A DNA stretch of 64,000 bases from Patescibacteria group bacterium (GTDB taxonomy: Bacteria; Patescibacteriota; Patescibacteriia; UBA10025; JBIOWE01), in assembly GCA_044868145.1 (NCBI GenBank), contig JBIOWE010000004.1:333860-397859 (forward strand), written 5' to 3'. Shown here in pieces: positions 19,450 to 59,795 of this stretch. Each line of letters starts with the position of its first letter. The first letter of the stretch is position 1. Below the pieces are notes generated by a model that was not told the origin of the DNA, did no database searches, and was given only the letters and a program-made list of their open reading frames with translations. A program made the translations under genes and the position numbers.

Positions 19450-19476
19450 GTAGGTCGGGGCCAGGCCCCGACCTAC
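19450..19476. repeat. REP-like palindrome, copy 1 (GTAGGTCGGGGCCAGGCCCCGACCTAC)
   Basis: Perfect 12-bp arms around AGG with GTAG...CTAC termini, the form associated with RAYT transposases. It lies intergenic between the MFS gene and rsmA. Confidence 0.65.
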
Positions 19477-19491
19477 CGGGGTATTTTCGGT

Positions 19492-20346
19492 ATGACTATC
19501 GCATTAGAACAAACAATAAAAAATCTCAAGGCAGAGTATCGTTTTAGACCATCGCGATCATCCGGACAAAATTTTTTAATTGATGCCGAAACGCTTCAGG
19601 TCATGGTGCGTTCGGCAGATCTTCATCCTGATGACGTCATTTTGGAAATTGGCGCGGGGTTCGGCACGCTTACGTTTGAACTTGCGAAACGTGCGTCGCG
19701 CATGATTGCCGTTGAACTTGACCGTCGGCTCGCTGCGGCGCTTGCCACGGAAGTACAAAAACGGTCAGCCGCCAATATCGAGGTGATACCCGGTGATATT
19801 TTTTCACGATGGCGCGAATTGCATAAAACGGTCCACGACCTCGGTTACAAAATCGTGGCAAATCTTCCATACAATATCACCTCGCGCGTTCTTGGCGAGT
19901 TCGTCAGCATAAAACCCCGACCGTCCTCTATGACGGTTATGGTTCAGAAAGAAGTTGCCGAGAGAGTTGTTGCTGCGCCGGGCAAAACAAGCGTGTTGTC
20001 TATTGTCTGCCAATTGTACGGAGAACCGAGGATTGCGTCTACCGTGCCCGCTTCGCATTTTTGGCCCCAGCCCTCGGTCGATTCCGCCATACTGCATATC
20101 GCACAGATCGGTCTGCGCCATTCAAAGGTCCTGGGAGCGATTCCGGAAAGGAAATTTTTCCAAATCGTACGGATTGGGTTTGCCGCCCGGCGTAAACAAC
20201 TGCAAAACAATCTTGCAAACGGTTTCCGCGCTTCCCGTGACCGAGCAAAGGAATGGCTGCGCTTGGCGAATCTTTCCGAGACTGTTCGTGCGCAAGATTT
20301 GTCAGTGCAGGACTGGACTAAACTGGCCAAAATCATTGCCAAGTAG
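19492..20346 (+). CDS. rsmA: 16S rRNA (adenine1518/1519-N6)-dimethyltransferase
   Basis: 284 aa with GQNFLID, SAM-binding EIGAGFGTLT and NLPYNITS. Confidence 0.9.
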   Translation: MTIALEQTIKNLKAEYRFRPSRSSGQNFLIDAETLQVMVRSADLHPDDVILEIGAGFGTLTFELAKRASRMIAVELDRRLAAALATEVQKRSAANIEVIPGDIFSRWRELHKTVHDLGYKIVANLPYNITSRVLGEFVSIKPRPSSMTVMVQKEVAERVVAAPGKTSVLSIVCQLYGEPRIASTVPASHFWPQPSVDSAILHIAQIGLRHSKVLGAIPERKFFQIVRIGFAARRKQLQNNLANGFRASRDRAKEWLRLANLSETVRAQDLSVQDWTKLAKIIAK

Positions 20347-20369
20347 GTCGGTGCCAGGCTCCAACCTGC
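20343..20369. repeat. REP-like palindrome, copy 2 (degenerate: GTAGGTCGGTGCCAGGCTCCAACCTGC)
   Basis: The 5' arm matches copy 1; the 3' arm carries substitutions. Its GTAG overlaps the rsmA TAG stop. Confidence 0.5.
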
Positions 20370-20395: not shown

Positions 20396-20424
20396 TTGAC
20401 ACAACGACCCTTCTGTGATATAAT
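20396..20424 (+). promoter_or_regulatory. consensus sigma70 promoter (TTGACA-17-TATAAT) at the head of the giant-protein/T4SS-like operon
   Basis: ttgaca at 20396-20401, a 17-nt spacer, and tataat at 20419-20424. The first ATG of the downstream gene is at 20459. Confidence 0.6.
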
Positions 20425-20458: not shown

Positions 20459-21235
20459 ATGACCCCTGTGCCCGAACAAAAAAATGAACAAACGGAAGGG
20501 GTAAAAAATTTTAGTACGGGGCAAAATCTTTCGAAGAAACAACAGAAATTCGCACTTCTTCTCGTTGCGTTCATCGGTTTTTTGGCGATTGGTATCGCGG
20601 TGTATCAATTTTTTCATACCTTACGCGCGCCGTTTGCCATCAAAAACGTTGCTCTTAATATCAACGGTCTTACCACGCAACAAGCATTGATCGAGGGATT
20701 GCGCACGAAAGACACGGACGAGGACGGCATTTCCGATTACGACGAACTGTATACATACCGAACAAGCCCCTATCTTGCGGATTCGGATAGCGACAAGATT
20801 TCGGATAAAGACGAACTTGCCGCAGGAAAAAATCCAAATTGTCCGGAAGGGAAAGACTGTCTTCAGCCGAGCATTACCAATACTAATTCTCTCGTTGTCA
20901 TCCCGGGCACGCCCCAGGCAAGCGATATTCCGATAGCGACATTGCGCCAAACATTGAAAGACGCGGGCGCGCCGGAAGACGTTTTGAATGGTATGTCGGA
21001 CGACGAACTGCGCCAACTCTATCAAGAGGTAGTCCAGGAGCAAGGCGGCGCACAAAATCTGAACGCCGGCGCATCTGACGCAACAATATCTCTCAGTACG
21101 CTTCAGAATCTTACTCCCTCAGAAATTCGGCAGTTCTTAATCCAGAGCGGCATTTCTGAAAGCACACTCAATGACGTGAATGACGAACAGTTACAAGCCA
21201 TTTTTCAAGAGGCATTGGCACAATATACGCAATAG
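20459..21235 (+). CDS. membrane-anchored protein with Asp-rich Ca-binding-like repeats (DTDEDGISDYDE / DSDSDKISDKDE)
   Basis: About 258 aa with TM helix FALLLVAFIGFLAIGIAVY and thrombospondin-type-3-like D-x-D-x-D-G motifs. It is the first gene of the operon that leads into the giant protein. Confidence 0.5.
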   Translation: MTPVPEQKNEQTEGVKNFSTGQNLSKKQQKFALLLVAFIGFLAIGIAVYQFFHTLRAPFAIKNVALNINGLTTQQALIEGLRTKDTDEDGISDYDELYTYRTSPYLADSDSDKISDKDELAAGKNPNCPEGKDCLQPSITNTNSLVVIPGTPQASDIPIATLRQTLKDAGAPEDVLNGMSDDELRQLYQEVVQEQGGAQNLNAGASDATISLSTLQNLTPSEIRQFLIQSGISESTLNDVNDEQLQAIFQEALAQYTQ

Positions 21236-21246
21236 CCAAAAACCAG

Positions 21247-21372
21247 TGTCATTCTGACCCCGCCGAATGGCGGGGGAAGAATCCCCAAGCAAAAACGTAT
21301 TGGCAGGGAGATCCTTCGACTCCGTCCCTCCCCCTCGGCAAGCTCGAGGTCGGGACTTCGCTCAGGATGACA
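21247..21372. repeat. MITE-like repeat, family B copy 2
   Basis: tgtcattctgacc ... ctcaggatgaca termini. It shares internal blocks with the copy at 1274-1396 and contains the hairpin ccccgccgaatggcggggg, which is also found in the 46.3-46.6 kb cluster. Confidence 0.55.
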
Positions 21373-21390
21373 GCAACATAGCAAGCCCAC

Positions 21391-24300
21391 ATGTTTAGCA
21401 AAGAGAAAAAAACTAAACGTACCATACGATTCATCGCTGGTTTCATCCTGGTGAGTATACTGTTTATCATCGGTGGGACCGTGTTTTTGTATACGAGAAG
21501 CGCTCAGGCGCAGTTTGGTATTCCCGGCGTTCCACAGCCCACGATAGTTGTTGAGGACGTTCCGGCAAAAGTATTAAACGCGATCAATAAAGCGATAAAA
21601 ACTGCGGCCGATGTTGCGTTCAAAAACGTGCTTCGGCAGTTTTTGAATAAAATTGCGTACGACGCGGCGGTGTACGTCGCCTCCGGCGGCAAAGGCCAAA
21701 AGCCATTGTTTTTGACGAACCCCGGCCAACTCCTTGAAAAAACCGCGGACAATGCGTATGGCGAGTACCTCGATAATCTTTCAAAACAGGTTTGGGGAAA
21801 ATCATTGTGTGATCAGCCCCCGTTTATTAAAGCGCGTTTGGATGTTTGGGCGCGCCAGGTGAAAGACCCGAAGATCACGCAGGCAACCTGCCCTGTGTCC
21901 GCGGCTGTCGCGAACATTCAACGCAGCACGCATGAGCAACTTGTTGACTTTTCAAAAAAATTCAATCCGCAAGCTTCTGAATTTGGGGCGTATCTCTCTA
22001 TTATTTCCGGCGCGGAACAATTCAGCTCGAAGCAAGTTGAATCAACGAAATTCGTTAAGCAACTCGAAGGGGAGTTTGAGTCCGTGAAGAGTACGATCAC
22101 CGGAGCGGTGAAGACGCCCGCGCGCACCGTTGGCGACGCGCTTTCCAGCATCGTGCCGGAATCCATTAAACCGTATGCGACCTATACCGGTACGGCGATA
22201 GCCGACGCTATCGGCGTGTTCACGAATACGCTTACGAGTAAATTGATTGAGCGGATATTTAAAAAAGGTTTTAACCCGGAAGCAGACACGAGCTTTAGAG
22301 AATTTGTCGGCACATCTTCCTCCGGCGTCGCGGCGGCACGAACATTGTTTGCCTCACTCAATCAGCCGGATTTTAATGTTGGGGGATCGCAAGACATTCT
22401 CAATATACTCGCTTCTTGCCCGCCGACCCCAGCCTATAATAATTGCATTATCGATGAAAAATTCCGCATTGCCATTGAGCAGGAGTTAACCGTTGGAGAG
22501 GCATTGCAGCAAGGACTGCTTGATAGTTCAAAAATTTTCGGTTTCGACGCGCAAGGGCGCGAACCGACCTTTCGAAATGGCTATCCATACCGAAGCTTGC
22601 TCGTTTTGCGGCACTATAGAATTATTCCTGCCGGATGGGAGCTTGCTGCGGGGTACATTCAGAAATTTGAACCCGGCAACTACACGCTTGGCGGTCTGGT
22701 CGCGCAGTATGAACAGAAAGAGAAGTCGCCGGGCCAGCCAAATCCGTTTTATCATCTGATTGACCCGAACTGGGTGTTGAAAGCTCCGGAATTATTTTGT
22801 CGCAGGCAGGGCGCGGGCGAACAGGTGACCAACGAACAATTTAGCCCAACCTTTAATCTGGACGACCCAAACAATCAAATTTCCACCCGACAAGTGCAGC
22901 GAGCGGATTACTGCGCGGACGAGCAAACGTGTCTTTTTGAAAACGAGGACGGTTCGTGCAAACGGTTCGGCTATTGCGTCGAAGAAAAGCCAATCTGGCG
23001 GTTCCAAGGGACGCAATGCGCCTCCCAGTTCTCAACGTGTCAGGCATTTCAGAAACAAGACGGCACATCAGTCGCATACGTGCAAAACACCATTGATTAC
23101 AACAGTTGCAACGCGAACAACGCCGGCTGCCAAATTTATTGTACGGAATTCAACACCTCGACGAATCAATGGCAATGCGACACGGGCGACAATCTTAGTA
23201 CGGGAGAAAGTAATATCATCAGCTTCAACGGTCAGGTGCAATCGTGTAATGCAACCGCTGCGGGGTGCAGTGAATTCATTCGCACAAAAGACGGGCTCGG
23301 CACGAACATTCTTGCGAACGGAAGTTTTGAAAAATTCTCCGGCACGATTAATGACCAAACAAAGGATACCGTAGACCAATGGGGACTTGCTGACGTTTCG
23401 TCTGAAGCGTTTTCTGGACTTGCGGCCGCACAGATTGTTCCGAATGATTCCATTGTGAGCGTACCGCTTGCTACGGGCTTTGCGGTTGGAGGTCGGACAT
23501 TTACGTTGTCGTTTCATGGGAAGCGTATTAGTGGCGATTGCTCGAGCGGCAACACCTATTCACTCGAGACTCAAGGCGCGCCAAGCCCGGAACTTTCGAC
23601 CTCGTTCACCTATTTCGATTCATGGACCAGGTATGCGGGCACTATCACGTTCCCCGTTGGCACGCCCGCGACGAACTTGGTTGTCCGCGTTGGCAATAAT
23701 GCGACGTGTACGAGCGTGGTTGACGCCGTACAGCTCGAAGAAGGCAGCCAGCCCAGCGACTACAAGGACTACGGGTCAGTGAACAAATTATATTTGAATG
23801 GCCAGCGTATTTCCTGTTCTGATGAAGAAGTGGGCTGTGAGCAGTACACGTCCGTTACGACAGGCGAATCAATCCCAGGCAAAGTAACGAACCCCCAGAT
23901 TTGCGATCCGAATGACCCAAGCTCTTGTGACCAGTGCCCTGTTCAGTACTTGGGGTGCAAGGCCTATCGAGAAATGCCAATCACGAATACACCGCAACGG
24001 CCAGGGCAAGATATTATTTCCTTTATTGCTTCCACGGGCCAAGCGTGCCCCGCGTCAGCCGTGGGCTGCGAAGAGTACACGAATCTCGACGAAGTGGCGG
24101 GTGGCGGCGAAGGTCTGGAATATTACAGCTTGATTCGACAGTGCGTGAAAGACGATGCACCGAACATCGGCACCTACTACACGTGGGTCGGTTCGGATGA
24201 ATTCGGATATCAATTGAAAAAATTCGAGCTGAAAAAAAGTAACTTAGGCGGTGCGCCCTGCACGAACCTCGGCATTGACAACCCGAGTTTGCCCGGCCAA

Positions 24301-27300
24301 TATCAGTGGCCGAATTGCGTTGACGGACAAACGTTTGATGAAAACGGCGACGGTATATCCGAAACCCACGATGCGGCAACGTGTCCATTGAACCAGGTTG
24401 GGGTAAATCCAGATTGTACGCAGTTTTATGACGATATCGGCAACACCTACACAGTGCTCAAGTCAAGAATCGCCTACGCAGATGCGAACTGCCACCCATA
24501 CAGGAACACTATAGACGGACAGGCAGTGACGTACCATCTTATTCCTGGCCAGGGCATTCAGTGCTCGGCCCAGTATGCGGGCTGTCGCGAGTACAAAGGC
24601 AACGCCGGAACGAACATCCGCACACTTATTTCATCCGACTTTGAGTCCGGCTCCATTAATCCGTGGGCGTCTGATGCGCCGGGGAACTTGAACCCCAGCA
24701 CGGAATCAGTGCAAGTGGGCGGGCACTCCATGCTCGTGTTGACAACCGCCTCGACGAATGTGGAGACGCTCATAACGCAAGGGAAATCGTATCTCATTTC
24801 ATTCTGGGCAAAATCAGACAGCGCGGATACGATTGTGCGCGTTGGCTTTACGAATCCGAATATCGTTTTCCCGGGTCAGGCAGCCGTGAAAGTCCAGGAT
24901 TGGAACCGCTATCAAATGGGTCCGGTATTTTTGAACCAGCCAGTAACCGCGGGCGCGAAGCTTTCCATTTTCTCGGCTGGCGATGCATTCTTTGTTGATA
25001 ATATCATCGTCCAGGAAGTGGTCGATAATATTTATATGATCAAGGGTTCCTACCAAGAATGCGCCGGCTATGAAAACTGCGATGCGTACCGCGACCGCGA
25101 CAACCAAACCCATTACCTGAAATCCTTCTCGAATTTGTGCGCGTCCGATAAAGTCGGCTGCGAAGCAATGATTGACACGAAAAATTCAAGCTCGGCGTTC
25201 AGCGAACAGTTTACGGCGAATCCGGAGCGCGGGGATATGAATGGCGATGGCAAGTACACGTTCGAAGACGGTGAGTACATTATGAATTACATATTTAATC
25301 GGGATGGGCCAAAACCGTATCCAGTACTGCTTGCGGATGTAAACGGTTCTGGCACGATCTCGCTTAGCGACCAAATCTATCTTGTGAATTATATTAATGG
25401 AAACGGCCCCGCACCCGTGCCCTACAATGCGACAAAGCGAACAATCCCTGACGATAGCTACGTGTACATGGTCAATGACCCTGCAAAATACTGCGATGCC
25501 CAAGAAAAAGGCTGTTCAAGACTGGGGACCGTTAACTTTAATTTGAACAATCAGGTTTCCGGATACGCTGATACGTACCTCATCAATAATCCCGATACCT
25601 ATGGTCAGACGCTGTGCAAGTCCTCCGAGCAGAGTTGCGCCGCATTCAACACGGGCAGCGGTACGTCATACTTTAAAGATCCCAAGCGTCAATGTGAATA
25701 TCGAGATGTTGGTGCCGGCCGAACCGGCTGGTACAGAGTAGGGAGTGCGTCATTGACGCCGGATTGTCCGGTCGCGACTGGTTTTTGTTTCGGCGGCGCA
25801 AACGCAGGCGCTGCGTGTGACATCGATAGTGATTGCGGAAGCAACATATGCAAATCTTCTTCGGAAGGCCTTTCTCAGCCGACGAACGGGTGGGTCGGAA
25901 TCTGCCCGGCGGGCCAATCCGGTTGCCAGGAATACAGCGACCCGACGGAATCGCTCGATGCCTCCGTTGGGCAGTGCAAGGTGAATTTGAATACTGGGAC
26001 ATACGAAACGGTGTGTACCGCGGGCGACGGAGCTGGAACGACTAATTGCGATCCGAGCAATCCTGCGCCAGTCTGCGATCCGGATGCTGATGGTGTGAAT
26101 GGCGTCTGCAGCGTCAGCGCAGTGTCTTGCAAACCATATTACTACGTTAATCAAAGCATTGACACCTCATCTTGCTTCGGAACCGTGGACCCGCGTATCG
26201 GGTGCCGTCTGTTCTATGATAGCTCGCAAGGCGCAGCAACGTATGACAGCAGGGCGACCTATACAGAGGTAGATCGCATCAAGCAGCCAACAGCGCCAGT
26301 CACCTGCGCCGATCCAAACAATTGCGATTCAAACCTTATCGTCAAAGTCCGGAACGATCGGGAATGCGGTAAATGGCTCGAATGCGCGACGTCGACTAGA
26401 GTAACGAATACCCGTGGAGAGGTGGAAGAGCTCTGTTTCGATATTAAGGCGTGCAATAAGATTGATCCGAAAACAGGCGCATGCATAGGTACGCGTGCGT
26501 GCTCAAATGATTCGACAAAGAGTTGTACGACCAACGCGGACTGCACGGGAGGTGGAACCTGTGTAGAGCTTGATATTCAGAATTCTAACATTACGCCGCA
26601 CGCCTCAACAAACGTTGATGTCATTAAAAATTCGTCCGGTATTGTTAAGGCAGGCGTGAACTGGGGTTGCTCTAACGATCCTGCCATTGTATGTAAAATA
26701 GATGCGGACTGCGGCTTGGGTAATAAGTGTCAAATCATCAGCGGATTTTACCCCGTGCGCGCCATGACCGAGATTGGGTTAGGAGGCGCTAGCGACGTTG
26801 ATCTTGTAGCCACCGGCGACATGGGGGATATTGATCTGAACGAAGGGTACAAGAAAACGTTTCCAGCCGGTTGGGAACGATCAGGGGCGGACCTCACGCG
26901 GGTGATTGAAGAGGCCTTGGACGGGACGCCGGATCGAGCAAAGATTGACGAAAATAACGTGTTGGTGGTGGACACGAACAGCACCGTCGCCGGGGAAGGC
27001 GTGCAATACCAGCTAACCGGTGTTGGTTCGGCGGAATACGTGGTTTCGCTCAATGCTCGATTCGATGCAACCCCTGAACCGGACGACATGATCGCCGTGA
27101 AGCTTGGCTATTTTAATTCGCTAGGCGTGCTTATTGGTTCGCAATTGATTGGGGACCGTATTCAGCCGACCACCTCATGGGCAAAGTTCGTGTTCGGTCC
27201 TTTGACGCCGAATATTCCCGCGAGCACGGACTCGGTAAAACTGCAGATTGTGCAGGAATCAGCCTCAGGAGGAGACGTGCAAAACGGCATAACGTTTTAT

Positions 27301-29271
27301 CTGGATAACGTTTCCATGAAACCAACGCTCGAAGTGCAAAGCGATCCGCCGAACCCTTCCAATAAGTTAACGCGGACGTGCCGCATGTACCCGCGCTCGG
27401 ATTCAACCCTCTGTCGGTACATTGATAGTAATGGAGCGGAATACAAAGGGTGGTTCGGCTATTGTATTGAACAAGACCCGAAGAATCCGAGCCAATGCAT
27501 TACCTGGTGGCCCGTTGATATTATCGCCGGAGAGTCGAACGTGTTCGGTGCCGGCGTAAAAGCCGGGTATGCGGATCGTGCTCCCTTATATATGTGCGTG
27601 GATTCAAGAGGCAATTATAACCGCGCCGGCAACAAGTATATAATCACAGCTAATGCATATTCCATGTTTTATCTTGACGGCGACTCGTGCGGTAATTCTT
27701 CCGGGGTTGGAAGTTGCGGTCCGACTGCCACGGATATCTACGGTCGGAGTTATTCATATAATTGTAAAGTCAATGGTGCAGGGTTTACATTCGGCGGATG
27801 TGTGCGTAATGCGAGCGGAGGCGGACAAGCGAATTATCGCTATTGGAATATTCCTTCGGCAGGGCAACCAGAATATGGTCTTTTTGATTACGAAATCGAA
27901 CGTGTACTAGGCAGAAAAGTGTCAAATCGCGGTGAATATCCGAACTCCTTCGTCTTAACTGCCAACGATGCCACCACTGACCCAGACCCGGACTTTGTTG
28001 GCCTGCAAGGTAACCTTCCGCTTAACGGTTCCGCATGGGTGTTTAAGTGTTCTCACACCGATGCAGTTTGCGGCGGGCAAGATTTACGCGTTGCCCTAGT
28101 ATTCGACGGTCAGCATCGCTTAATTCGCTACTATGTCTACCTGGATGACTGGACGGGAAGCGAAAACGAAGCCGGAGCGTTCACTCTTGATTTTTATCTC
28201 CGTGAGCAGTGCGAAGCGCTCGCGCAAGTGGTAAAGTCCGGCGGCGATAACGTTGCTTGGGCTGGCAGGTCCTCTTCAGGGTCGCCGTATACCGCTCAAG
28301 ATTTGCAATATAATTATCTGACTGATTTTGCACCATTCGGCGGTGTGCTACAACCAAAGCCGGAAGGCAGCACGCCGGATAGTTGGGCAGTCCCTGTCTA
28401 CGCGGAGCAACGCCAAAATCCGCGAGATACTTCGACGGCTCGGGCGGGCAGCGCCTATGCGTGCGATAATGGTAACTGCAGCACGCGCATGTGCAGTAAT
28501 AGCAGCACGAACGATTGTTCGGACGATAATAAGATTAACACGTGCTTGAAAGGCCAGGATGGTGTGGTGAATACGGCGGATGATGGCTACTGTATTGGAC
28601 TTGGTCCATACCCGCCTGGCGGCACGGGCGGCGGCGTGTGGGCGAGCGGCAAAACCATTGCCCTGGGCATTGATCGCCTCAAGCGTCTATTCGCCGACGT
28701 ATACGTAAGTTGGGCATGGGACTATGCGCAGGGAAAATACGTTATTCAGCAGCCGATTATCAATGCATGGCAGGCTAGCTTTGACGGGATGAGTGAATGT
28801 CCCGGAGCACGCCCGGGTTACCCCAACGATTACTGCGGCATTCGGCCGCAAGCCGGCAACTTACGCATTGTTGCGGGCGGCTCTTCGTATAAATCCGGAG
28901 ATATTACGATCCAGAGCGGTGACACAATACAACTAACATTCACGAGTACGGCAGATCGCGAGCAACTACCGTTGCAGCGCATTCGCATCGATTGGCAGGG
29001 GAATGGCTTTAATACAAATCCCAACGATGGCGATGTTGATGAACCGTGGGGCTTTGCACCCAAAGGCGACCCCGCGAACCCGCATTGGTATAACCACACG
29101 TATACTTCCATTGACGCGGCCACCTGTCCGGGCACCGGCTGCAAGCCGACAATTCAACTAATCGACAACTGGGGTTGGTGCAGTGGTGGATCCGGTGTGG
29201 ACAGGCGGAACGTTCCGGACGGAGTATGTACGTCCGTTGACACCTATCCGGATGATATTATTGTCCAGTAG
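21391..29271 (+). CDS. giant (2626-aa) cysteine-rich extracellular protein with an N-terminal TM anchor and a dockerin-type Ca-binding repeat pair
   Basis: Single long ORF with N-terminal TM RFIAGFILVSILFIIGGTVFLY and more than 100 Cys in recurring C-x-C / CxxC contexts. A dockerin-like tandem (DMNGDGKYTFEDGEYIMNYIFNRDG...ADVNGSGTISLSDQIYLVNYINGNG) lies at about 25234-25410, with Gly-rich C-terminal stretches. The stop is 5 nt before the VirB6-like gene. Confidence 0.7.
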   Translation: MFSKEKKTKRTIRFIAGFILVSILFIIGGTVFLYTRSAQAQFGIPGVPQPTIVVEDVPAKVLNAINKAIKTAADVAFKNVLRQFLNKIAYDAAVYVASGGKGQKPLFLTNPGQLLEKTADNAYGEYLDNLSKQVWGKSLCDQPPFIKARLDVWARQVKDPKITQATCPVSAAVANIQRSTHEQLVDFSKKFNPQASEFGAYLSIISGAEQFSSKQVESTKFVKQLEGEFESVKSTITGAVKTPARTVGDALSSIVPESIKPYATYTGTAIADAIGVFTNTLTSKLIERIFKKGFNPEADTSFREFVGTSSSGVAAARTLFASLNQPDFNVGGSQDILNILASCPPTPAYNNCIIDEKFRIAIEQELTVGEALQQGLLDSSKIFGFDAQGREPTFRNGYPYRSLLVLRHYRIIPAGWELAAGYIQKFEPGNYTLGGLVAQYEQKEKSPGQPNPFYHLIDPNWVLKAPELFCRRQGAGEQVTNEQFSPTFNLDDPNNQISTRQVQRADYCADEQTCLFENEDGSCKRFGYCVEEKPIWRFQGTQCASQFSTCQAFQKQDGTSVAYVQNTIDYNSCNANNAGCQIYCTEFNTSTNQWQCDTGDNLSTGESNIISFNGQVQSCNATAAGCSEFIRTKDGLGTNILANGSFEKFSGTINDQTKDTVDQWGLADVSSEAFSGLAAAQIVPNDSIVSVPLATGFAVGGRTFTLSFHGKRISGDCSSGNTYSLETQGAPSPELSTSFTYFDSWTRYAGTITFPVGTPATNLVVRVGNNATCTSVVDAVQLEEGSQPSDYKDYGSVNKLYLNGQRISCSDEEVGCEQYTSVTTGESIPGKVTNPQICDPNDPSSCDQCPVQYLGCKAYREMPITNTPQRPGQDIISFIASTGQACPASAVGCEEYTNLDEVAGGGEGLEYYSLIRQCVKDDAPNIGTYYTWVGSDEFGYQLKKFELKKSNLGGAPCTNLGIDNPSLPGQYQWPNCVDGQTFDENGDGISETHDAATCPLNQVGVNPDCTQFYDDIGNTYTVLKSRIAYADANCHPYRNTIDGQAVTYHLIPGQGIQCSAQYAGCREYKGNAGTNIRTLISSDFESGSINPWASDAPGNLNPSTESVQVGGHSMLVLTTASTNVETLITQGKSYLISFWAKSDSADTIVRVGFTNPNIVFPGQAAVKVQDWNRYQMGPVFLNQPVTAGAKLSIFSAGDAFFVDNIIVQEVVDNIYMIKGSYQECAGYENCDAYRDRDNQTHYLKSFSNLCASDKVGCEAMIDTKNSSSAFSEQFTANPERGDMNGDGKYTFEDGEYIMNYIFNRDGPKPYPVLLADVNGSGTISLSDQIYLVNYINGNGPAPVPYNATKRTIPDDSYVYMVNDPAKYCDAQEKGCSRLGTVNFNLNNQVSGYADTYLINNPDTYGQTLCKSSEQSCAAFNTGSGTSYFKDPKRQCEYRDVGAGRTGWYRVGSASLTPDCPVATGFCFGGANAGAACDIDSDCGSNICKSSSEGLSQPTNGWVGICPAGQSGCQEYSDPTESLDASVGQCKVNLNTGTYETVCTAGDGAGTTNCDPSNPAPVCDPDADGVNGVCSVSAVSCKPYYYVNQSIDTSSCFGTVDPRIGCRLFYDSSQGAATYDSRATYTEVDRIKQPTAPVTCADPNNCDSNLIVKVRNDRECGKWLECATSTRVTNTRGEVEELCFDIKACNKIDPKTGACIGTRACSNDSTKSCTTNADCTGGGTCVELDIQNSNITPHASTNVDVIKNSSGIVKAGVNWGCSNDPAIVCKIDADCGLGNKCQIISGFYPVRAMTEIGLGGASDVDLVATGDMGDIDLNEGYKKTFPAGWERSGADLTRVIEEALDGTPDRAKIDENNVLVVDTNSTVAGEGVQYQLTGVGSAEYVVSLNARFDATPEPDDMIAVKLGYFNSLGVLIGSQLIGDRIQPTTSWAKFVFGPLTPNIPASTDSVKLQIVQESASGGDVQNGITFYLDNVSMKPTLEVQSDPPNPSNKLTRTCRMYPRSDSTLCRYIDSNGAEYKGWFGYCIEQDPKNPSQCITWWPVDIIAGESNVFGAGVKAGYADRAPLYMCVDSRGNYNRAGNKYIITANAYSMFYLDGDSCGNSSGVGSCGPTATDIYGRSYSYNCKVNGAGFTFGGCVRNASGGGQANYRYWNIPSAGQPEYGLFDYEIERVLGRKVSNRGEYPNSFVLTANDATTDPDPDFVGLQGNLPLNGSAWVFKCSHTDAVCGGQDLRVALVFDGQHRLIRYYVYLDDWTGSENEAGAFTLDFYLREQCEALAQVVKSGGDNVAWAGRSSSGSPYTAQDLQYNYLTDFAPFGGVLQPKPEGSTPDSWAVPVYAEQRQNPRDTSTARAGSAYACDNGNCSTRMCSNSSTNDCSDDNKINTCLKGQDGVVNTADDGYCIGLGPYPPGGTGGGVWASGKTIALGIDRLKRLFADVYVSWAWDYAQGKYVIQQPIINAWQASFDGMSECPGARPGYPNDYCGIRPQAGNLRIVAGGSSYKSGDITIQSGDTIQLTFTSTADREQLPLQRIRIDWQGNGFNTNPNDGDVDEPWGFAPKGDPANPHWYNHTYTSIDAATCPGTGCKPTIQLIDNWGWCSGGSGVDRRNVPDGVCTSVDTYPDDIIVQ

Positions 29272-29275: not shown

Positions 29276-32053
29276 ATGAAATCGCTCGCAGGCATATTCG
29301 CTTCTCTGAATCCACGCGGCCAAACTTTGCGCCGCGGTATGGTTTTATTGGCCGGCGTTGCTGTCGCGGGAGGCCTCCTGCTCGTTACCACGCAGCCAGC
29401 GCATGCCTCTATTTTGGGAGACGTTGGCGATAAAATCGCCGGATGGATTGCCGGCATTCTTTTTGCCATAGCCACTGTTCTCGGCAAGCTCTTGCTTGTG
29501 GCGATAGAGTTGTTGTTGGCTATTGTGACCTATAATAATTTTACGGACACGGATGCCGTAGTTCGTGGATGGGTGATTGTACGTGATATTGGCAACATGC
29601 TTTTTGTACTGATTTTGCTGACGATGGCATTTGGTACAATCTTGCGTATTCAAACGTACCGGTGGAGTCGGCTCTTAGGTCGCATCATTATGATGGCGAT
29701 TCTGATCAACTTCTCACGAATGATCGCCGGATTCTTCATTGACATTGCGCAGGTGATCATGCTCACGTTTGTTAACGCGTTTGCCCAAAACGCGGCAGGT
29801 ACGTTTACGAACGTCTGGGGCTTAAACGATCTTCTGTCCTTTCTAGATCAACCGAATCCACCTGCAGGCGTTGAGTTACTCGGCTCGGCTTTTTTTATGA
29901 ATGTGTTGCTCGTCGTCGCCATTGTCGTGATGTTCGTTATGGTACTGGTCTTTCTCATGCGCATTATCATGCTCTGGATTCTGGTGGTTCTTTCGCCCAT
30001 TGCGTACCTGCTCTACGCCTTCCCGGCCGGACAGCGTTATGCAAGTCAGTGGTGGGGCGCGTTTGGCCGGTACGTGGTGATTGGCCCGGTCCTTGCGTTT
30101 TTTATCTGGTTCTCGCTCTATATACTTGGTCAATTTCCTGCAGAAGCTTTGTTGAATAAGCCTAGAGCCAGTGTTTCCGGACAGACCGAAGAGCTTTCCG
30201 CAACAGTTATCAAGGCAGGTAGTTCCACAAATATTTTAAATTTCATTATCGCGACTGCCATGCTTGTTGGCTCATTGATGGTGGCGAGACAGATGGGCGG
30301 AATGGCGGGCGCTGCGGCAAGTACGGCCATCGGTAAACTTCGCGCAGCTGGCGCCGGCGCGATCCGCGCGCCGTTGCGCCTTGGCCGCGCTGCCCTGCGT
30401 GGCGCCGGCCAGGTGACTGCCGGAGGATTTGACGCACTGTCGCGGGCAAGGCCTGTGAGAGAGGGGCTCGCGAGAGTTGGCGCATCAGGCATTCCATTGG
30501 TTCGTGACCTTGCTGCCAGAACCCTTGTCGCTTCCGCACAAAGAGAAAAGTCCTATGAAGAACAGGCTGAACGATACGCCAGATTTGTACCTGACACACG
30601 CGTACGAAGTCGATATGCTAATGCTAGATTTGCCATTACGCCGAAACAACGAGCCATGCAACGGGCCTTTCGTAAGCAATCTCCCAGTACCATTAATAAA
30701 GAAGACGAGTTAATAAAATTTGTTGAAGGAATGGATGATGAAGCACTGCGTAAAGTTAAAGACGCAGAGTGGGCAGCAATCGGTAGGAGAGGAATACGAT
30801 TAGGCGCACTAGGACGCGGAGATACGATCATCCGTAAAGATCGCGATGCGCTTGGCGCGTACAATAGGGGTCGAAGCGAATTTTTTACAGCAAAAGGGTT
30901 ACCAGATGGTCTTGATACAGTGGGGGAGGTAGGCCTAAACCAAAACAACCGACCATTAACGGGTTCGAACCGCTTTGGCAACGTACCGAGTCCGGGAACC
31001 ACATATTACGATCGGGTTATGCGGGAAGGGAAGTCTAAGCATCAATATAGATTGGTAGAAGACGAAGAACGGCCAGCAGCAGCAAAGGCAGCAAAGCGCG
31101 GAGAGGGGAATCTGAGCGTTGGTAAATTTGATACAGGCCAAAGCAATGCTCTTGCCGTAGATTTTGACAAATTAGGACTGGAATTTTTGCGTCCGACTGC
31201 TACCCAAAAGTTTAGCCAGACAAAAGGCATTAATATTGATGATCGTGGAGAGATCAGGCAAGTCGCCTCAAAAATGGTTGGCGTTCTTGATCAGGAAATT
31301 GGTAAATTGCGACAACAAGGGGGTCAAGATCGGCGCATTCAAGAGCTTGAACGTTCCCGCGAACGTTTCAGTAAGCCAGAGTCATTTGATCGATTGAATC
31401 TGCTTAACTCAAGTAGCGAAGGTTACGGTGTGCGTGACTTAATGAAAACGCATGTTCATGAAGACTACCATGCAACAGGTGTCAAAGATGAAGAATCCGT
31501 GACGCGCCTAACCGAGCACACGATGCAAAACAGGATTTATAGTCTACGCAAAGGCATTGGAGGGAGCGTCGCAGCAGGCGAATCGAACGTTAATGACATT
31601 CTTACTAAAGAGCGGGGAAGCTTGCGTGCTGAATTCAGCGCGCGACCAAGAACCCGCATTCGAACGGAAACGCCACCAGTCAGCGAAAATGTTGGGAAAC
31701 AAGTTCAGGAGGCCGCAGACTTTCATGGACAATTAGAACAGATGCCGGTGGAAGAGTTTGCGAAGAATGCCAATGAAATAGCAGAACAAGTAAAGAAATT
31801 ATCAGAAGGCCTGAAACAACTGGGAGGCAAGATTGAGGGAGTGCCTAATGTCAATACTCTTGAGAATCAAGTTCGCACCGGTCAATTTACGCCTGAACAA
31901 TGGAAAATCTTTACGAATGATTTTGGAAAGCTTGCGAAAGCTTTGGAAGAACGAACCTCTGCAACGGGGCAAAAACCAACGCAGCCAAAACCTCCACAGC
32001 CACCTGCAAGCAAACCGCCTGAAGAAGAAATTTTTGAATCACCATTTGCATAG
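29276..32053 (+). CDS. VirB6/TrbL-like polytopic T4SS membrane protein with a long hydrophilic C-terminal tail
   Basis: About 925 aa from the ATG at 29276. The N-terminal 330 aa have 6-7 TM helices arranged as in TrbL/VirB6 (LGKLLLVAIELLLAIVTYNNFTD...NMLFVLILLTMAFGTILR...FFMNVLLVVAIVVMFVMVLVFLM). The tail is charged and coiled-coil-rich, ending in Pro-rich KPTQPKPPQPPASKPP. Confidence 0.55.
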   Translation: MKSLAGIFASLNPRGQTLRRGMVLLAGVAVAGGLLLVTTQPAHASILGDVGDKIAGWIAGILFAIATVLGKLLLVAIELLLAIVTYNNFTDTDAVVRGWVIVRDIGNMLFVLILLTMAFGTILRIQTYRWSRLLGRIIMMAILINFSRMIAGFFIDIAQVIMLTFVNAFAQNAAGTFTNVWGLNDLLSFLDQPNPPAGVELLGSAFFMNVLLVVAIVVMFVMVLVFLMRIIMLWILVVLSPIAYLLYAFPAGQRYASQWWGAFGRYVVIGPVLAFFIWFSLYILGQFPAEALLNKPRASVSGQTEELSATVIKAGSSTNILNFIIATAMLVGSLMVARQMGGMAGAAASTAIGKLRAAGAGAIRAPLRLGRAALRGAGQVTAGGFDALSRARPVREGLARVGASGIPLVRDLAARTLVASAQREKSYEEQAERYARFVPDTRVRSRYANARFAITPKQRAMQRAFRKQSPSTINKEDELIKFVEGMDDEALRKVKDAEWAAIGRRGIRLGALGRGDTIIRKDRDALGAYNRGRSEFFTAKGLPDGLDTVGEVGLNQNNRPLTGSNRFGNVPSPGTTYYDRVMREGKSKHQYRLVEDEERPAAAKAAKRGEGNLSVGKFDTGQSNALAVDFDKLGLEFLRPTATQKFSQTKGINIDDRGEIRQVASKMVGVLDQEIGKLRQQGGQDRRIQELERSRERFSKPESFDRLNLLNSSSEGYGVRDLMKTHVHEDYHATGVKDEESVTRLTEHTMQNRIYSLRKGIGGSVAAGESNVNDILTKERGSLRAEFSARPRTRIRTETPPVSENVGKQVQEAADFHGQLEQMPVEEFAKNANEIAEQVKKLSEGLKQLGGKIEGVPNVNTLENQVRTGQFTPEQWKIFTNDFGKLAKALEERTSATGQKPTQPKPPQPPASKPPEEEIFESPFA

Positions 32054-33402: not shown

Positions 33403-33686
33403 GATATTCTTTAGACAGAAAAAGCCCTTCCCACCGAGGGTTTTTGTTTTTATAGTTATCATCGCCCCTCCGGGAGTGTACGCGCCTGTACAAGGTTCGC
33501 AGGACTCCCCTCCTTACCAAGGAGGGGAAGAACGGACGACACAGGCTTCGACCCAAGATAGTTTCTCAAGGGGAGGTCCGAGGGGCAGTCCAAAACCATA
33601 TGACGACCCTCTTTAATAGAAAGTTATTACCTTAAAACGCGGCCTTTTCGCATTAAAAAATGCTCCTTACGGCAATAAATCCCGGT

Positions 33687-33715
33687 TTGATTTTTTTGGC
33701 AACTTCTGATATAAT
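33687..33715 (+). promoter_or_regulatory. sigma70-like promoter (TTGATT-17-TATAAT) for the second T4SS-like operon
   Basis: ttgatt at 33687-33692 and tataat at 33710-33715. A 13-bp tandem duplication, tttcatggttgaa x2, follows at 33739-33766. Confidence 0.4.
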
Positions 33716-33763
33716 AAACTCCGCAGCACGTGGTAAAAAAGCACTATTTCATGGTTGAATTTC

Positions 33764-34894
33764 ATGGTTGAAACGATGAACAATTTGCCAGACGGCATGC
33801 TCATCCGCACGAAAGACGGAAAATATAAAATTGTCCAGCATGGCGAGCTTGTTGCCTATCAACCGTCCGTAACCGTTGCAGCGTCAATCATGACGCAAAC
33901 GATACCACATCCGAACGAGCCGACTGCACCGCTTGCGCCGCGGTTCGCTAAAACGACCGCAGCGTTTTACATGCATCCTGACGACGAAGAAGAGATACGC
34001 CGCCACGAAGAGAAAGTACAGATGGTGACCGAGGAGGAGTCGGTGCACGAGATCGATCCAATTATCACCGGCATTGTCAGTAAACACAACTTGACGTTTC
34101 CCGACGACGTGTTGCGGAAGCGATTTTGGAGCATCGCGTCCTCTCGCTTGACGCAAATGCGTGATTCGTTGGAAACCCATGATGCGCTTACTCGGCCCGC
34201 GAAAGTTGGCGGCATGGGATACGATGAGGTCTTGAGTCAAAACATTCTGAGTACCTTGGAGCAGGAGTCATCAAACATTCACGACACAATGCAATCCGCG
34301 CCGCGGTCTCATGCACCGGAGCCGCCAGCAGGTCGCCCAACCGGAGCCCTCGAGCAGCAGCCGATGCGCCCGACTATTCCGCAAGCCCTAGCCCGGCCCG
34401 TGCAGCCGCTAAGAATGCAACAGCCCGAACCTCGACCAGTACCCCTGCCGCAACCGATTATGCCACCAGTGCGATCAGTAGATCGTCCAGTACCGCAGAT
34501 GCCACGCGTGATGCGCGAAACGATCATGACGGAACGACAGCCGGTCGTTGACATACGAAGACCAACGCGCGTTGTTGGACCAGTCGAAGAGCTGAGCGTA
34601 ACTTCAGTTGAAGATTTTCGAAAGCTCGGACGATCGCTTGAGGAACAAACAAAAAAAATGTTACAAAAGTTTGATCTACTTGCTGATGAATCTCTTTTGA
34701 AAAAAGCCGATGGCATTACCGCATGGCACACCTCGCCGATGTATCAATTATACGTAGACGTTGGTAGGGAGAGCATTGAGAGTGGTAAGTCAATTGCGGA
34801 TGTTGTGGCAGGGCGCGCTGCCGCGTCAAAACCAACTATAGCTGCGGAGGAATTCTATGCGATTGCCGACATGAATAAACGTTTGAGATTTTAA
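33764..34894 (+). CDS. hypothetical protein with a central Pro/Gln-rich linker
   Basis: About 376 aa containing PEPPAGRPTGALEQQPMRPTIPQALARPVQPLRMQQPEPRPVPLPQPIMPP. Start ambiguous among 33755 (TTG), 33764 and 33776. Confidence 0.4.
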   Translation: MVETMNNLPDGMLIRTKDGKYKIVQHGELVAYQPSVTVAASIMTQTIPHPNEPTAPLAPRFAKTTAAFYMHPDDEEEIRRHEEKVQMVTEEESVHEIDPIITGIVSKHNLTFPDDVLRKRFWSIASSRLTQMRDSLETHDALTRPAKVGGMGYDEVLSQNILSTLEQESSNIHDTMQSAPRSHAPEPPAGRPTGALEQQPMRPTIPQALARPVQPLRMQQPEPRPVPLPQPIMPPVRSVDRPVPQMPRVMRETIMTERQPVVDIRRPTRVVGPVEELSVTSVEDFRKLGRSLEEQTKKMLQKFDLLADESLLKKADGITAWHTSPMYQLYVDVGRESIESGKSIADVVAGRAAASKPTIAAEEFYAIADMNKRLRF

Positions 34895-34897
34895 CAC

Positions 34898-35320
34898 ATG
34901 CAACAGTTTGTTGTTCCACAATTCATTGATGTAGAAAGCAAAATTATCGGTCCACTGACTGTGCGGCAGTTTTTGATTTTCTTATTGGCCGCCGGTCTAA
35001 TTTTTGCAACGTTCAAGATTTTTTCCTTTGCGCCAGCGGCCGTGCTCACTATTCTGATATTCGCAATCGCGGTTGTCTTCGCTGCGGTCAAAATTAACGG
35101 TCGGCCATTCCATTATTTTATTATTTCGCTTATCCAAACGAGCAAGCGGCCCCCACTGAAAATATGGGAAAAACAATTGACGCAACATGAGCGAAAACGC
35201 AAAGACAAAGAAAAGACTGAACGAACCGAGATTATTGTGGCAAAGAAACCATTGACAAAATCGCGCCTGACCGAACTTTCCCTCATCGTCGACACCGGAG
35301 GCGCGTTTAAAGAAGAGTAA
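34898..35320 (+). CDS. PrgI-family (VirB3-like) T4SS membrane protein
   Basis: 140 aa with the N-terminal signature MQQFVVPQFIDVESKIIGPLTVRQFLIFLLAAGLIF, followed by a second TM helix. Confidence 0.65.
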   Translation: MQQFVVPQFIDVESKIIGPLTVRQFLIFLLAAGLIFATFKIFSFAPAAVLTILIFAIAVVFAAVKINGRPFHYFIISLIQTSKRPPLKIWEKQLTQHERKRKDKEKTERTEIIVAKKPLTKSRLTELSLIVDTGGAFKEE

Positions 35321-35324
35321 GAGT

Positions 35325-36002
35325 ATGGCAAAAGACGAAAAAAAACGAAAAGAAGCTTATTCAACCCAGCGTTATTTGGACATTTTGGAAATCAAAGACG
35401 ACTGTGTTGTTTTGAAGGATGGCACGCTCCGCGGGGTTATGCTGGTTTCGTCGATCAACTTTGCGCTCAAGTCCGAAGAAGAGCAGAATGCTGTTATATC
35501 CGGGTACATGCAGTTTTTGAACTCACTGGATTTTCCCATTCAGATCGTCGTTCAATCACGCAAATTGAATATTGACGAATACATTGAACGACTCAAAGAT
35601 ATCGAGAAGCGGCAAACGAATGATCTCTTACGCATCCAAACGCAAGAATATCGTCAGTATATCGGTGAACTTGTCGAACTATCGGATATCATGAGCAAGA
35701 AGTTTTATGTTGTCATTCCATTCGCACCCGGCAAAGGAGGCACGAAGAAATTCTTTTCCGTGTTCCGAGAAGCGCTCTCACCGACGTCGGTGATCCATTT
35801 GAAACAAAAAAAATTCGAAAAGTATCGGGACGAGCTTGGTAAGCGTGTCGGATACGTTTTGAGCGGACTTTCTTCAACCGGCTTGAATGCGGTTCAGCTT
35901 GACACCCAGGGTCTCATTGAGCTGTATTACGACACGTACAATCCGGAAATCGCGCCCCAACAAAAATTTGTGGAAGCGAATAAACTTAATCTTGAAGCAT
36001 AA
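35325..36002 (+). CDS. VirB4/TraE-like conjugative ATPase, N-terminal fragment (split gene)
   Basis: 225 aa. LDILEIKDDCVVLKDGTLRGVMLVSSINFALKSEEEQNAVISGYMQFLNSLDFPIQIVVQSRKLNIDEY matches the N-terminal region of Gram-positive VirB4 (PrgJ/TraE). It ends with a TAA 2 nt before the ATG of the next ORF. Confidence 0.6.
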   Translation: MAKDEKKRKEAYSTQRYLDILEIKDDCVVLKDGTLRGVMLVSSINFALKSEEEQNAVISGYMQFLNSLDFPIQIVVQSRKLNIDEYIERLKDIEKRQTNDLLRIQTQEYRQYIGELVELSDIMSKKFYVVIPFAPGKGGTKKFFSVFREALSPTSVIHLKQKKFEKYRDELGKRVGYVLSGLSSTGLNAVQLDTQGLIELYYDTYNPEIAPQQKFVEANKLNLEA

Positions 36003-36004
36003 TT

Positions 36005-37918: not shown

Positions 37919-37924
37919 ACATCT

Positions 37925-38509
37925 ATGAACAGAAAATATCTTCTTTTTCTCGGCATCTTCGTCGGTTTGCTCCTTATTGCCGCGGCCGTTTTATTTTTTT
38001 TGAATCGGCAGCCAGCGGCAAACCAGAATACCGGCAATCAGAATACAAATACCCAGATCGTGGTGAATACTAATGTCACCAATACCGCAACGAACGTGCA
38101 AGCCGTTAATGAGCAGGAGAAGACGAAGCTCGAATTAAGCCGGATCGCTCTTTCATTCGCTGAACGGTTTGGGACATATTCGAATCAGTCGGATTTTGAA
38201 AATGTCGAAAGCCTGAAAGTGTTCATGACCGGCAGCATGCAAACGTGGGCCGACGGATTTGTGGCCAGCGCGCGCCAGCAGAACGCCGACTCCTCAATTT
38301 ATTACGGTGTCACCACAAAAGTCATTACGTCAAAGAATGTCCGTTTTGACGAAACGCACGCGGATTTTGTCTTTACGACCCAGCGAATAGAATCAACCGG
38401 CACGACGGATAACAATCGAGTTTTTTTCCAGGATATTTCCATCAAGTTCGTGAAAGAAGGATCGCAATGGAAAGTAAACGAGGCAACGTGGCTTGATATT
38501 AAAGCTTAG
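37925..38509 (+). CDS. membrane-anchored protein, possible VirB8-like (NTF2-fold) component
   Basis: 194 aa with a single N-terminal TM (LLFLGIFVGLLLIAAAVLFFL), an Asn/Thr-rich linker and a roughly 130-aa globular domain. Its position after VirB4 suggests a PrgL/VirB8 analogue, but this is inference only. Confidence 0.3.
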   Translation: MNRKYLLFLGIFVGLLLIAAAVLFFLNRQPAANQNTGNQNTNTQIVVNTNVTNTATNVQAVNEQEKTKLELSRIALSFAERFGTYSNQSDFENVESLKVFMTGSMQTWADGFVASARQQNADSSIYYGVTTKVITSKNVRFDETHADFVFTTQRIESTGTTDNNRVFFQDISIKFVKEGSQWKVNEATWLDIKA

Positions 38510-38510
38510 T

Positions 38511-39095
38511 ATGGCGAACGACATCGATAGCCTGCAGTCCGGACGAAGCCCGGGTTCGCGCGAGGAGCAGAAAACGATCGCGCAACAGCTTGAAAAAGAA
38601 ACGGCGCGCAAGATGTACCTGAACCGCCGCGCAACAGAGCAAACAACGCTTCGCGAGCTGCCGTCGAGTCGAACAACAAAACCAGAACAAGAAGAAGCGC
38701 GGTCCGAGGAAGAAGAATCTAGCCAGTCGTTCGTTGAGAATGAAGACCAGTCGAATGTGTCGCAGGGCCAGGAACGATCCGTGGCCAGTTCTTTTCAGCA
38801 AAAACTACAGATGGCCCGACAGGTCGCGAGCAAGGAGGTAAAAACAGAGATGTCAGTTGCTGCCGAAGCTACCGCAAAGGCTGCATCACGAGCCGCTGTT
38901 ATGGCTGTGCGAGGCGCGGCGCTTGCCGTGATCAACGCAGTCGGCGCGGTTATAGGATTTATTGCGGGGTTTGGCTGGCCGGTGTTACTTGGAATTTTAA
39001 TAGTTATTGTGCTTGGCTTTCTCATAAGTGATCCAGTATCTGCTTCCAAACTTGGCGTGTGCTTCATTGTTGAAGCCCTGGGCTTTAGTTGCTGA
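38511..39095 (+). CDS. hypothetical protein with an acidic N-terminal region and a C-terminal two-helix hydrophobic hairpin
   Basis: About 195 aa from the ATG at 38511. The C-terminus reads AAVMAVRGAALAVINAVGAVIGFIAGFGWPVLLGILIVIVLGFLI. Confidence 0.35.
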   Translation: MANDIDSLQSGRSPGSREEQKTIAQQLEKETARKMYLNRRATEQTTLRELPSSRTTKPEQEEARSEEEESSQSFVENEDQSNVSQGQERSVASSFQQKLQMARQVASKEVKTEMSVAAEATAKAASRAAVMAVRGAALAVINAVGAVIGFIAGFGWPVLLGILIVIVLGFLISDPVSASKLGVCFIVEALGFSC

Positions 39096-39100
39096 TAGAT

Positions 39101-40075: not shown

Positions 40076-40089
40076 AATAATAACGTACT

Positions 40090-59782: not shown

Positions 59783-59795
59783 TAACCATATCATG

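Follow-up and report, generated by a model that had tools for sequence, protein, structure and literature searches.

We analysed a 64,000-nucleotide (nt) stretch of Patescibacteria DNA (GCA_044868145.1, contig JBIOWE010000004.1, positions 333,860-397,859, forward strand), referred to here as the window, which contains at positions 21391-29271 (+) an open reading frame (ORF) of 2,626 codons without an internal stop, amounting to 12.3 % of the window. Its product, hereafter the giant, is an exported protein with 98 Cys (3.7 % of residues) encoded in one cluster with components of a type IV secretion system (T4SS), namely VirB4, VirB3/PrgI and a VirB6-like protein. The TAG stop codon of the giant gene (29269-29271) lies 4 nt from the ATG (29276) of an extended VirB6/TrbL-like gene. 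A preliminary description of the locus had reported a single uninterrupted 7.9-kb ORF covering 12 % of the window and nearly abutting the VirB6-like start, and both points are borne out. That description had also raised the concern of an assembly chimera. The identical 2,626-amino acid (aa) protein is present with the same neighbours on the 414-kb NCBI contig and in an independent Logan assembly (SRR30692719, 35 kb), and more than 100 homologues are colinear with it over most of its length. A chimera or pseudogene, for which we found no supporting point, is therefore excluded for all practical purposes.

No homologue had been assignable at the outset; searching 1.84 billion representative proteins by phmmer, with aa 41-640 as query, instead returned 1,275 clusters (defined at 50 % identity) at E < 1e-3, 982 of them at E < 1e-30, and a scan of GTDB species representatives identified relatives in 441 genomes. 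Among the best 150 phmmer hits the match always falls at the N-terminus, mostly of proteins of 1.6-3.6 thousand amino acids (kaa), and the shorter proteins may be truncated at contig ends. Homologues derive almost entirely from metagenome-assembled genomes of Patescibacteria, or candidate phyla radiation (CPR) bacteria, of the Parcubacteria group (Kerfeld-, Buchanan-, Komeili- and Nomurabacteria). Many contigs with a Patescibacteria-type locus (L008, L014, L020 and others) are titled 'uncultured Gammaproteobacteria bacterium' in third-party annotation (TPA) binchicken assemblies and one such contig is titled Pirellulales; the labels probably reflect mislabelled or contaminated bins. Certain lineages split the giant into an N-core gene of 1.7-2.05 kaa and one or two additional genes whose products carry separate signal peptides, so that the core, the middle and the C part are encoded individually ahead of the VirB6-like gene. 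This arrangement would fit an assembly of several subunits outside the cell.

The features of the giant gene, including its carbohydrate-binding modules (CBMs) and the predicted local distance difference test (pLDDT) scores of modelled regions, are as follows.

21391-29271 (+): giant gene, encoding the 2,626-aa exported, Cys-rich protein
21391-21510 (+): predicted Sec-type signal peptide, aa 1-40, with predicted cleavage after SAQA
21511-22377 (+): predicted alpha-helical N-terminal region, aa 41-329, helices modelled with pLDDT mostly <55
22378-22800 (+): most conserved non-Cys domain, aa 330-470, a confident model with pLDDT 90-96
22801-23307 (+): Cys-rich module A, aa 471-639, thirteen Cys, repeated motif C-x6-C-x-E-[YF]
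23308-23790 (+): CBM4-type jelly roll 1, aa ~640-800, more variable than the core
23791-24612 (+): Cys-rich modules B and C, spanning aa 801-1074, a beta-rich scaffold in which TNL...GGE is invariant, pLDDT ~85-95
24613-25035 (+): CBM22/CBM4_9-type jelly roll 2, aa 1075-1215, conserved family-wide
25231-25401 (+): dockerin type I module, aa 1281-1337, a clade-restricted insertion
25438-26760 (+): Cys-rich modules E and F, aa 1350-1790, including C-x3-[DS]-D-C-x4-6-C motifs
26788-27360 (+): CBM-like jelly roll 3, aa ~1800-1990, with weaker evidence than rolls 1 and 2
27373-29268 (+): C-terminal region, aa 1995-2626, opening with a conserved CR-YP...GW-GYC-E-DP...WWPVD block

The N-terminus comprises a basic n-region, a hydrophobic core and a P-x-x-A-x-A motif that is kept in 87 of the 120 homologues from which conservation columns and signal-motif counts were derived. 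The single hydrophobic stretch of the giant spans aa 12-34, with no second transmembrane (TM)-like segment beyond it, and LPxT[GAS], the sortase signal of PrgB-like adhesins, occurs within the last 60 residues of 0/120 homologues. As judged by these motifs the stretch looks like a cleavable Sec signal peptide and not the membrane anchor that had first been proposed. Given the conserved P-x-x-A-x-A, the lack of a second TM segment and the lack of LPxTG, the mature giant is predicted to be secreted rather than anchored at its N-terminus.

Counting of Cys spacings identified C-x5-C or C-x6-C pairs (spacings 6-7) 26 times, compared with 6.3 +/- 2.4 in shuffles, together with a single CxxC and no C-x-C. 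The high and patterned Cys content of the preliminary description thus stands, but the pattern is C-x5/6-C rather than C-x-C and CxxC, usually in the context ...[YF]-x-x-x-x-x-x-C-x-x-x-x-[AV]-G-C-x-E-[YF]. From aa 470 to ~1440-1460 the great majority of Cys are 100 % conserved across the homologues, the exceptions lying in variable stretches. Eleven of the thirteen Cys in module A are 100 % conserved, C584 and C596 being kept at ~81-82 %, while in modules E and F the Cys are invariant in the first ~110 aa and the remainder is less conserved. An AlphaFold2 (AF2) model of aa 800-1470 (pLDDT 81, predicted TM-score 0.64) places each C-x6-C as a short turn between strands. The earlier view of a disulfide-rich extracellular protein in a lineage of reduced-genome symbionts, here Patescibacteria, is supported, with the disulfides as a prediction.

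The proximal half of the protein is conserved and the distal, C-terminal half less so, with a hypervariable stretch at aa ~2050-2250 followed by a moderately conserved tail. The helical region (aa 41-329) is conserved within the family and returned neither a fold nor a family match in the fold and family-library searches. The domain that follows it, aa 330-470, is invariant at R407, R410, W416, E417, A419, A420, D458, P459, W461, V462 and L463 and gave no match in a fold search of the PDB. Three modules of CBM4/9/22 type, which the preliminary description had overlooked along with the size of the family and its fixed gene order, are distributed along the chain, and carbohydrate binding is predicted from their fold. 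A jelly-roll fold matching solved CBMs, the hallmark of CBM_4_9/CBM22 (Pfam PF02018), is present; W1092, Y1134 and W1171 within the span of jelly roll 2 are invariant in homologues. Jelly roll 1 aligns by family profile with the xylanase CBM4-2 chains 3jxs and 1k42 (E 8e-4 to 6e-3). Jelly roll 3 aligns with 4d0q_A and 1gui_A (E 0.003-0.02) and has a sequence motif resembling those of rolls 1 and 2. Profile searches of the giant family against the PDB matched CBMs alone, and beyond the dockerin and CBMs no known module was recognised in the giant in searches of Pfam, NCBIfam, PHROGs and the PDB. A PKD-like motif (DW-G...PH--H-Y...DNWGWC) was seen by eye in the last ~140 aa and set aside, as no tool confirmed it. 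Around 80 % of the giant is without a relative in current family or structure libraries, including the invariant aa 330-470 and the recurrent C-x6-C beta-module, which makes it a target for structural discovery.

Giant adhesins of the Bap, RTX and SiiE kind carry long tandem-repeat arrays, and the giant has none. Tandem Repeats Finder found nothing relevant, and self-BLASTP at E < 0.01 gave no matches; the sole exception to this lack of internal similarity is a short FGYC-E motif, encoded by a direct repeat (D8) at 22964-22991 and 27452-27479. The surface adhesin first suggested would consequently not be one of the typical repetitive type. Three CBM4/9/22-type modules together with a dockerin are an architecture typical of glycoside hydrolases, and the giant could in principle be a secreted, cellulosome-like enzyme for polysaccharide degradation or wall remodelling, with aa 330-470 as a novel catalytic module that carries the invariant acidic and basic residues E417, D458, R407 and R410 and would act on envelope glycans of the host or of the cell itself. 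In predatory bacteria, giant genes have been tied by one preprint to the breakdown of cell walls (bioRxiv 10.1101/2023.11.21.568195). Searches of Pfam, NCBIfam, PHROGs and the PDB by sequence and fold recovered no catalytic family, however, while most members lack the dockerin, no cohesin was found in the window and the neighbourhood already encodes a dedicated lytic enzyme of SLT/VirB1-like type as well as an M23/LysM peptidase, so that we regard an enzymatic role as unlikely.

The dockerin-like EF-hand tandem of the preliminary description is confirmed. Scanning aa 1071-1370 alone gave a match to Pfam Dockerin_1 (PF00404) at 33.2 bits (E 6e-8; cut-off 22.9), the whole-protein scan giving 22.4 bits, just under the cut-off, and the ScaB dockerin 4uyp_B in the PDB matches at E 0.003. 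Both 12-residue Ca loops, DMNGDGKYTFED and DVNGSGTISLSD, fit the pattern of D/N/S at positions 1, 3 and 5 and D at 12, so that the failure of calcium-binding-motif criteria, named in the preliminary description as refuting, did not occur. AF2 places helices after the loops at aa 1291-1303 and 1325-1335, at pLDDT of only 55-70. The insertion occupies a fixed slot between the conserved T1263-x-N1265 and C1368, which in other homologues is 33-54 aa long. Inserts of dockerin length are found in ~38 of 120 homologues, with both Ca loops intact in 21, and a strict two-loop test is passed by 9 of 85 species-level loci. The suggestion that the dockerin implies a cohesin-like partner did not hold, as no Cohesin match was found among the ORFs of the 64-kb window and the module is confined to this minority; docking to a cohesin is thus not the general mechanism of the family. 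Presence of the dockerin gave no usable signal against the lengths of the VirB6-like and TSP3-like genes (n=9, phylogenetically confounded). Judged by its sequence the dockerin is genuine but is not the defining feature of the giant family.

The genes and sites flanking the giant are as follows.

20396-20424 (+): sigma-70-type promoter match, TTGACA-17-TATAAT with TG, 12/12 consensus matches
20459-21235 (+): TSP3-like single-pass membrane protein, 258 aa, directly upstream of the giant
21236-21390 (+): 155-nt intergenic leader between the TSP3-like gene and the giant, with a predicted stable multi-branch fold
29276-32053 (+): extended polytopic membrane protein of VirB6/TrbL-like type, 925 aa, whose hydrophilic C-terminal domain covers ~550 aa
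32056-33402 (+): p448, 448 aa, no predicted TM segment, conserved 3' of the VirB6-like gene
33420-33445 (+): terminator-like hairpin, 10-bp stem and T run, after p448, ending the first operon
33687-33715: promoter-like site following the terminator-like hairpin
33755-42356 (+): T4SS core block, beginning with p379
34898-35320 (+): PrgI/VirB3-like protein of the T4SS block, followed by a TraC-like 225-aa protein
36005-37918 (+): VirB4 ATPase of the T4SS block, followed by two small proteins
39089-40075 (+): T4SS pilin, followed by a beta-propeller protein
41346-42356 (+): pilin+SLT/VirB1-like protein, last of the T4SS block

Upstream of the giant the gene order is leucyl-tRNA synthetase (LeuRS), Sua5, MFS, KsgA and the TSP3-like gene, and RecG lies downstream of the T4SS block on the opposite strand. 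The promoter match at 20396-20424 is the likely start of an operon of the TSP3-like gene, the giant, the VirB6-like gene and p448. Within the giant operon a terminator-like hairpin first appears after p448. Co-transcription of the giant with the VirB6-like gene, as first described, is therefore predicted from the shared strand, the 4-nt gap and the lack of an earlier terminator. The TSP3-like protein has two TSP type-3 Ca-binding loops (DTDxDGxSDYDE and DSDSDGxxDKxE) and a C-P-x-G-x-x-C loop, and an alignment of 32 orthologues (A7) showed D85, D87, D89, D93, E96, D108, D110 and D112 to be invariant. The 155-nt leader folds at -58.9 kcal/mol (z -3.1), a stability reached by 0/200 shuffles; it occurs once in the window, has no Rfam match and is long for the family, the orthologous gaps being ~18-45 nt (L002-L005).

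A 27-nt perfect palindrome, GTAGGTCGGGGCCAGGCCCCGACCTAC, occurs four times in the window (19450-19476, 20343-20369, 59796-59822 and 61847-61873), mostly in or at the edge of intergenic gaps, with one copy overlapping the first bases of the ORF at 59793. It looks like a repetitive extragenic palindromic (REP)-like or terminator-type element, and two copies flank KsgA just upstream of the giant operon. Within the T4SS block the protein encoded at 41346-42356 (+) fuses a T4SS pilin domain to an SLT lytic transglycosylase, placing VirB2-like and VirB1-like parts in one chain, and the second pilin-domain protein at 39089-40075 (+), of 328 aa, is far longer than usual VirB2 pilins.

The VirB6-like protein scores 22 bits against TrbL (PF04610; cut-off 25.9, E 1.5e-4), the only recurrent Pfam family among its orthologues (9 of 35 at E <= 0.01, best E 1.4e-5), and its profile matched no VirB6 structure in the PDB. 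Across 85 loci of divergent species we identified the order KsgA / TSP3-like / giant / VirB6-like / (p448) / (p379 / PrgI / TraC / VirB4), with the TSP3-like gene in 78 and the VirB6-like gene in 62, most of the misses being loci that end too early. The giant is almost always directly upstream of the VirB6-like gene, and gaps between the orthologous pairs are short, for example 16 nt in both L002 and L004.

We also approached the locus from the opposite direction, starting from VirB6-like genes in metagenomes and counting only loci with enough flanking sequence. The giant was present upstream in 36 of 50 VirB6-like loci and the PrgI/VirB4 block downstream in 23 of 30. The genes for VirB6-like, p448, p379, PrgI, TraC-like and VirB4 remain clustered also at loci without the giant. 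The VirB6-like gene and p448 accordingly belong to the T4SS block, to which the TSP3-like gene and the giant are a frequent, lineage-specific 5' addition. In the 14 loci lacking the giant its place is taken by an unrelated family of 200-400 aa or by pilins. Seven such loci (L093, L102, L111, L117, L122, L131 and L152) carry this 200-400-aa family upstream of the VirB6-like gene, its members being related to one another (BLASTP E down to 1e-43). Kinship of these proteins with the N-terminus of the giant or with the TSP3-like protein was considered and rejected (hmmsearch E > 0.05). A protein of a different type, an open-ended ORF with 13.5 % cysteine at L117:1-1092, lies upstream of one VirB6-like cluster without a giant.

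From this gene context we consider it somewhat probable that the giant is a Sec-exported, disulfide-stabilised, beta-rich and glycan-binding, lineage-specific outer component of the T4SS-like (MPF-FATA-related) apparatus of Patescibacteria. One operon would provide the giant, a small membrane protein that binds Ca through TSP3-type loops, a channel subunit of extended VirB6-like type and a cytoplasmic protein of 440 aa. The giant would pass the membrane via Sec with removal of its signal peptide, and its conserved N-terminal half, from aa 41 to ~1460, may hold it at the surface through non-covalent binding to the VirB6-like protein, the TSP3-like protein or both. The variable distal half and the CBM4/9/22-type lectin modules would then bind envelope glycans, of the host or of the cell's own wall, and so position a secretion or uptake channel against the host. 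In one sub-clade the dockerin insertion may add a Ca-dependent protein-docking site. Favouring this reading are the 4-nt gap on the same strand with an upstream promoter match and a terminator only after p448, and the order TSP3-like / giant / VirB6-like across the divergent species. The membership of the VirB6-like gene in the T4SS block, the conserved signal peptide, the conserved Cys framework, the colinear and repeat-free conservation, the AF2 model of aa 800-1470, the contrast between a conserved proximal and a variable distal half, the lectin-type modules and the split variants point the same way, as do the published absence of adhesins from the Patescibacteria T4SS (PMC12102498) and the essential T4SS and glycan-binding surface proteins of Southlakia epibionticum (PMC10633639).

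Several observations weigh against such a role. No part of the giant is homologous to a known T4SS component (VirB1-11, Prg/Trs/Tcp or PrgB) in Pfam, NCBIfam, PHROGs and PDB searches by sequence and fold. The LeuRS, Sua5, MFS and KsgA genes upstream are equally syntenic, and as these are housekeeping genes conserved adjacency is weak evidence of a functional link. Since the giant is missing at 14 of 50 VirB6-like loci it is not an obligatory part of the T4SS. Genetics are available for a single class, Saccharimonadia, whose T4SS cluster holds no such giant. The VirB6 assignment itself rests on Pfam scores below threshold, and both glycan binding and disulfides are predictions.

Some of these points would suit instead a T4SS-independent surface protein of Parcubacteria-group cells, be it an adhesin of general function, a coat resembling an S-layer or a wall-organiser, whose gene happens to lie at the boundary between a housekeeping block and a T4SS block. 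Gene order would in that case be kept regardless of function from LeuRS through the TSP3-like gene to the giant, loci without the giant would be expected, and the VirB4 core indeed does not directly follow in L002 and L004; large Cys-rich extracellular proteins unrelated to T4SS are moreover on record in CPR bacteria (PMC4736985). The 4-nt gap, the lack of a terminator before the end of p448, the 16-nt gaps in those same two loci and the near-constant position directly upstream of the VirB6-like gene nevertheless speak for a link, and we hold independence from the T4SS to be a doubtful, if serious, alternative. We hold it to be very unlikely that the giant is a T4SS substrate reaching the host as an effector or toxin. 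It adjoins T4SS genes and effector delivery has been proposed for the Patescibacteria T4SS (PMC11665869), but it has a conserved Sec signal peptide, an invariant Cys framework and lectin modules typical of stable extracellular proteins, lacks a polymorphic C-terminal toxin domain and is very large for translocated cargo.

Going beyond an outer component in general, we tentatively propose that the giant, its TSP3-like neighbour and the extended VirB6 could form a new extracellular T4SS module, in which the giant would act as a VirB5/adhesin-like lectin arm, stiffened by disulfides, that docks onto VirB6, extends across the envelope and chooses the host. Host range would be set by the variable distal half together with optional modules (dockerin, fn3/Big_7 and PA14), and such a module, if real, would represent a separate subtype of T4SS among CPR bacteria of the Parcubacteria group. 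T4SS are widespread in Patescibacteria and indispensable in the single species examined to date (PMC10633639). Conserved in at least 441 species, exported, lectin-bearing and upstream of a VirB6-like gene, the giant is a concrete candidate for a part in host contact in uncultured Parcubacteria-group lineages.

A number of other features were identified in the window. Three consecutive large genes at 56522-63844 (+), encoding 1,086, 681 and 652 aa, have no Pfam hit and share DNA repeats and the peptide repeat (A/S)FDG-x-x-x-WV, which suggests beta-propeller-like repeat proteins. Two adjacent inverted-repeat pairs at 48569-48670 and 53308-53410 (52 nt with 83 % complementarity and 39 nt with 90 %) enclose 4.6 kb with histidyl-tRNA synthetase and a ClpB-type ATPase and could delimit an invertible or mobile segment or represent shared regulatory sites. 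An IS200-like Y1 transposase ORF at 7752-8351 (+) lies by a 39-nt hairpin-forming inverted repeat (8044-8128).

The cluster resembles the T4SS described from Patescibacteria (PMC12102498, PMC10633639) in its PrgI/VirB3, TraC/TrsD-like, VirB4 and extended VirB6 proteins, its VirB2-like pilins and its SLT/VirB1-like protein. KsgA and RecG are nearby, as reported for Patescibacteria (RecG for class ABY1; PMC12102498). These systems were described as MPF-FATA-like and relaxase-free, and the most complete survey of them stated that 'no adhesins, such as PrgB, were detected' (PMC12102498); their function has been called 'completely unknown' (PMC11665869). Neither Quinonero-Coronel et al. 2025 (PMC12102498) nor Wang et al. 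2023 (PMC10633639) describes the giant or its TSP3-like partner, and the Southlakia epibionticum cluster SEML1_0006-0019 holds no 2-3 kaa protein like it. Essential in that Saccharibacterium are its T4SS and several surface proteins that bind glycans, one of which bears a dockerin (PMC10633639).

Closest in presumed role are surface adhesins of Gram-positive conjugative T4SSs, for example PrgB of pCF10, and the stalk or pilus-tip protein VirB5, which like the giant are exported, encoded in or next to T4SS genes and expected to act in contact. In Gram-negative systems virB5 lies just upstream of virB6, much as the giant adjoins its VirB6-type gene, and by analogy the helical N-terminal region might, speculatively, be likened to VirB5. 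Pfam searches and PDB searches by sequence and fold showed no similarity of the giant to either protein; it lacks LPxTG, exceeds them 2-10 times in size and resides on the chromosome with vertical inheritance, whereas the PrgB and VirB5 systems are plasmid-borne. Its CBMs recall the CBM22, CBM4 and CBM9 modules of xylanases and glucanases (Paenibacillus barcinonensis Xyn10C, PDB 4xup/4xuo) but are set in a Cys-rich scaffold without a catalytic module. Its dockerin resembles those of type I in having two F-hand Ca loops, each with a helix, and in passing the Pfam cut-off as an isolated segment; it differs in being internal rather than C-terminal, confined to a sub-clade, with no cohesin found nearby, and in an organism that is not cellulolytic.

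The searched literature contains no prior description of the giant family, its mentions of large Cys-rich CPR proteins being generic. The large Cys-rich proteins of Peribacteria (Anantharaman et al. 2016, PMC4736985) are likewise exported, from a CPR symbiont and with a proposed role in attachment. Those proteins are encoded in a cluster of several genes, contain 7 % Cys together with repeats of FG-GAP and Myxococcus type and vary in sequence between strains, whereas the giant, going by that description, differs as a single colinear family in a fixed T4SS-adjacent position. Giant Cys-rich extracellular proteins of CPR bacteria (PMC4736985) and essential glycan-binding and dockerin surface proteins in a Saccharibacterium (PMC10633639) were thus already known, while the giant family with its invariant Cys framework, its TSP3-like partner and its fixed place upstream of the VirB6-like gene are new with respect to the literature searched.

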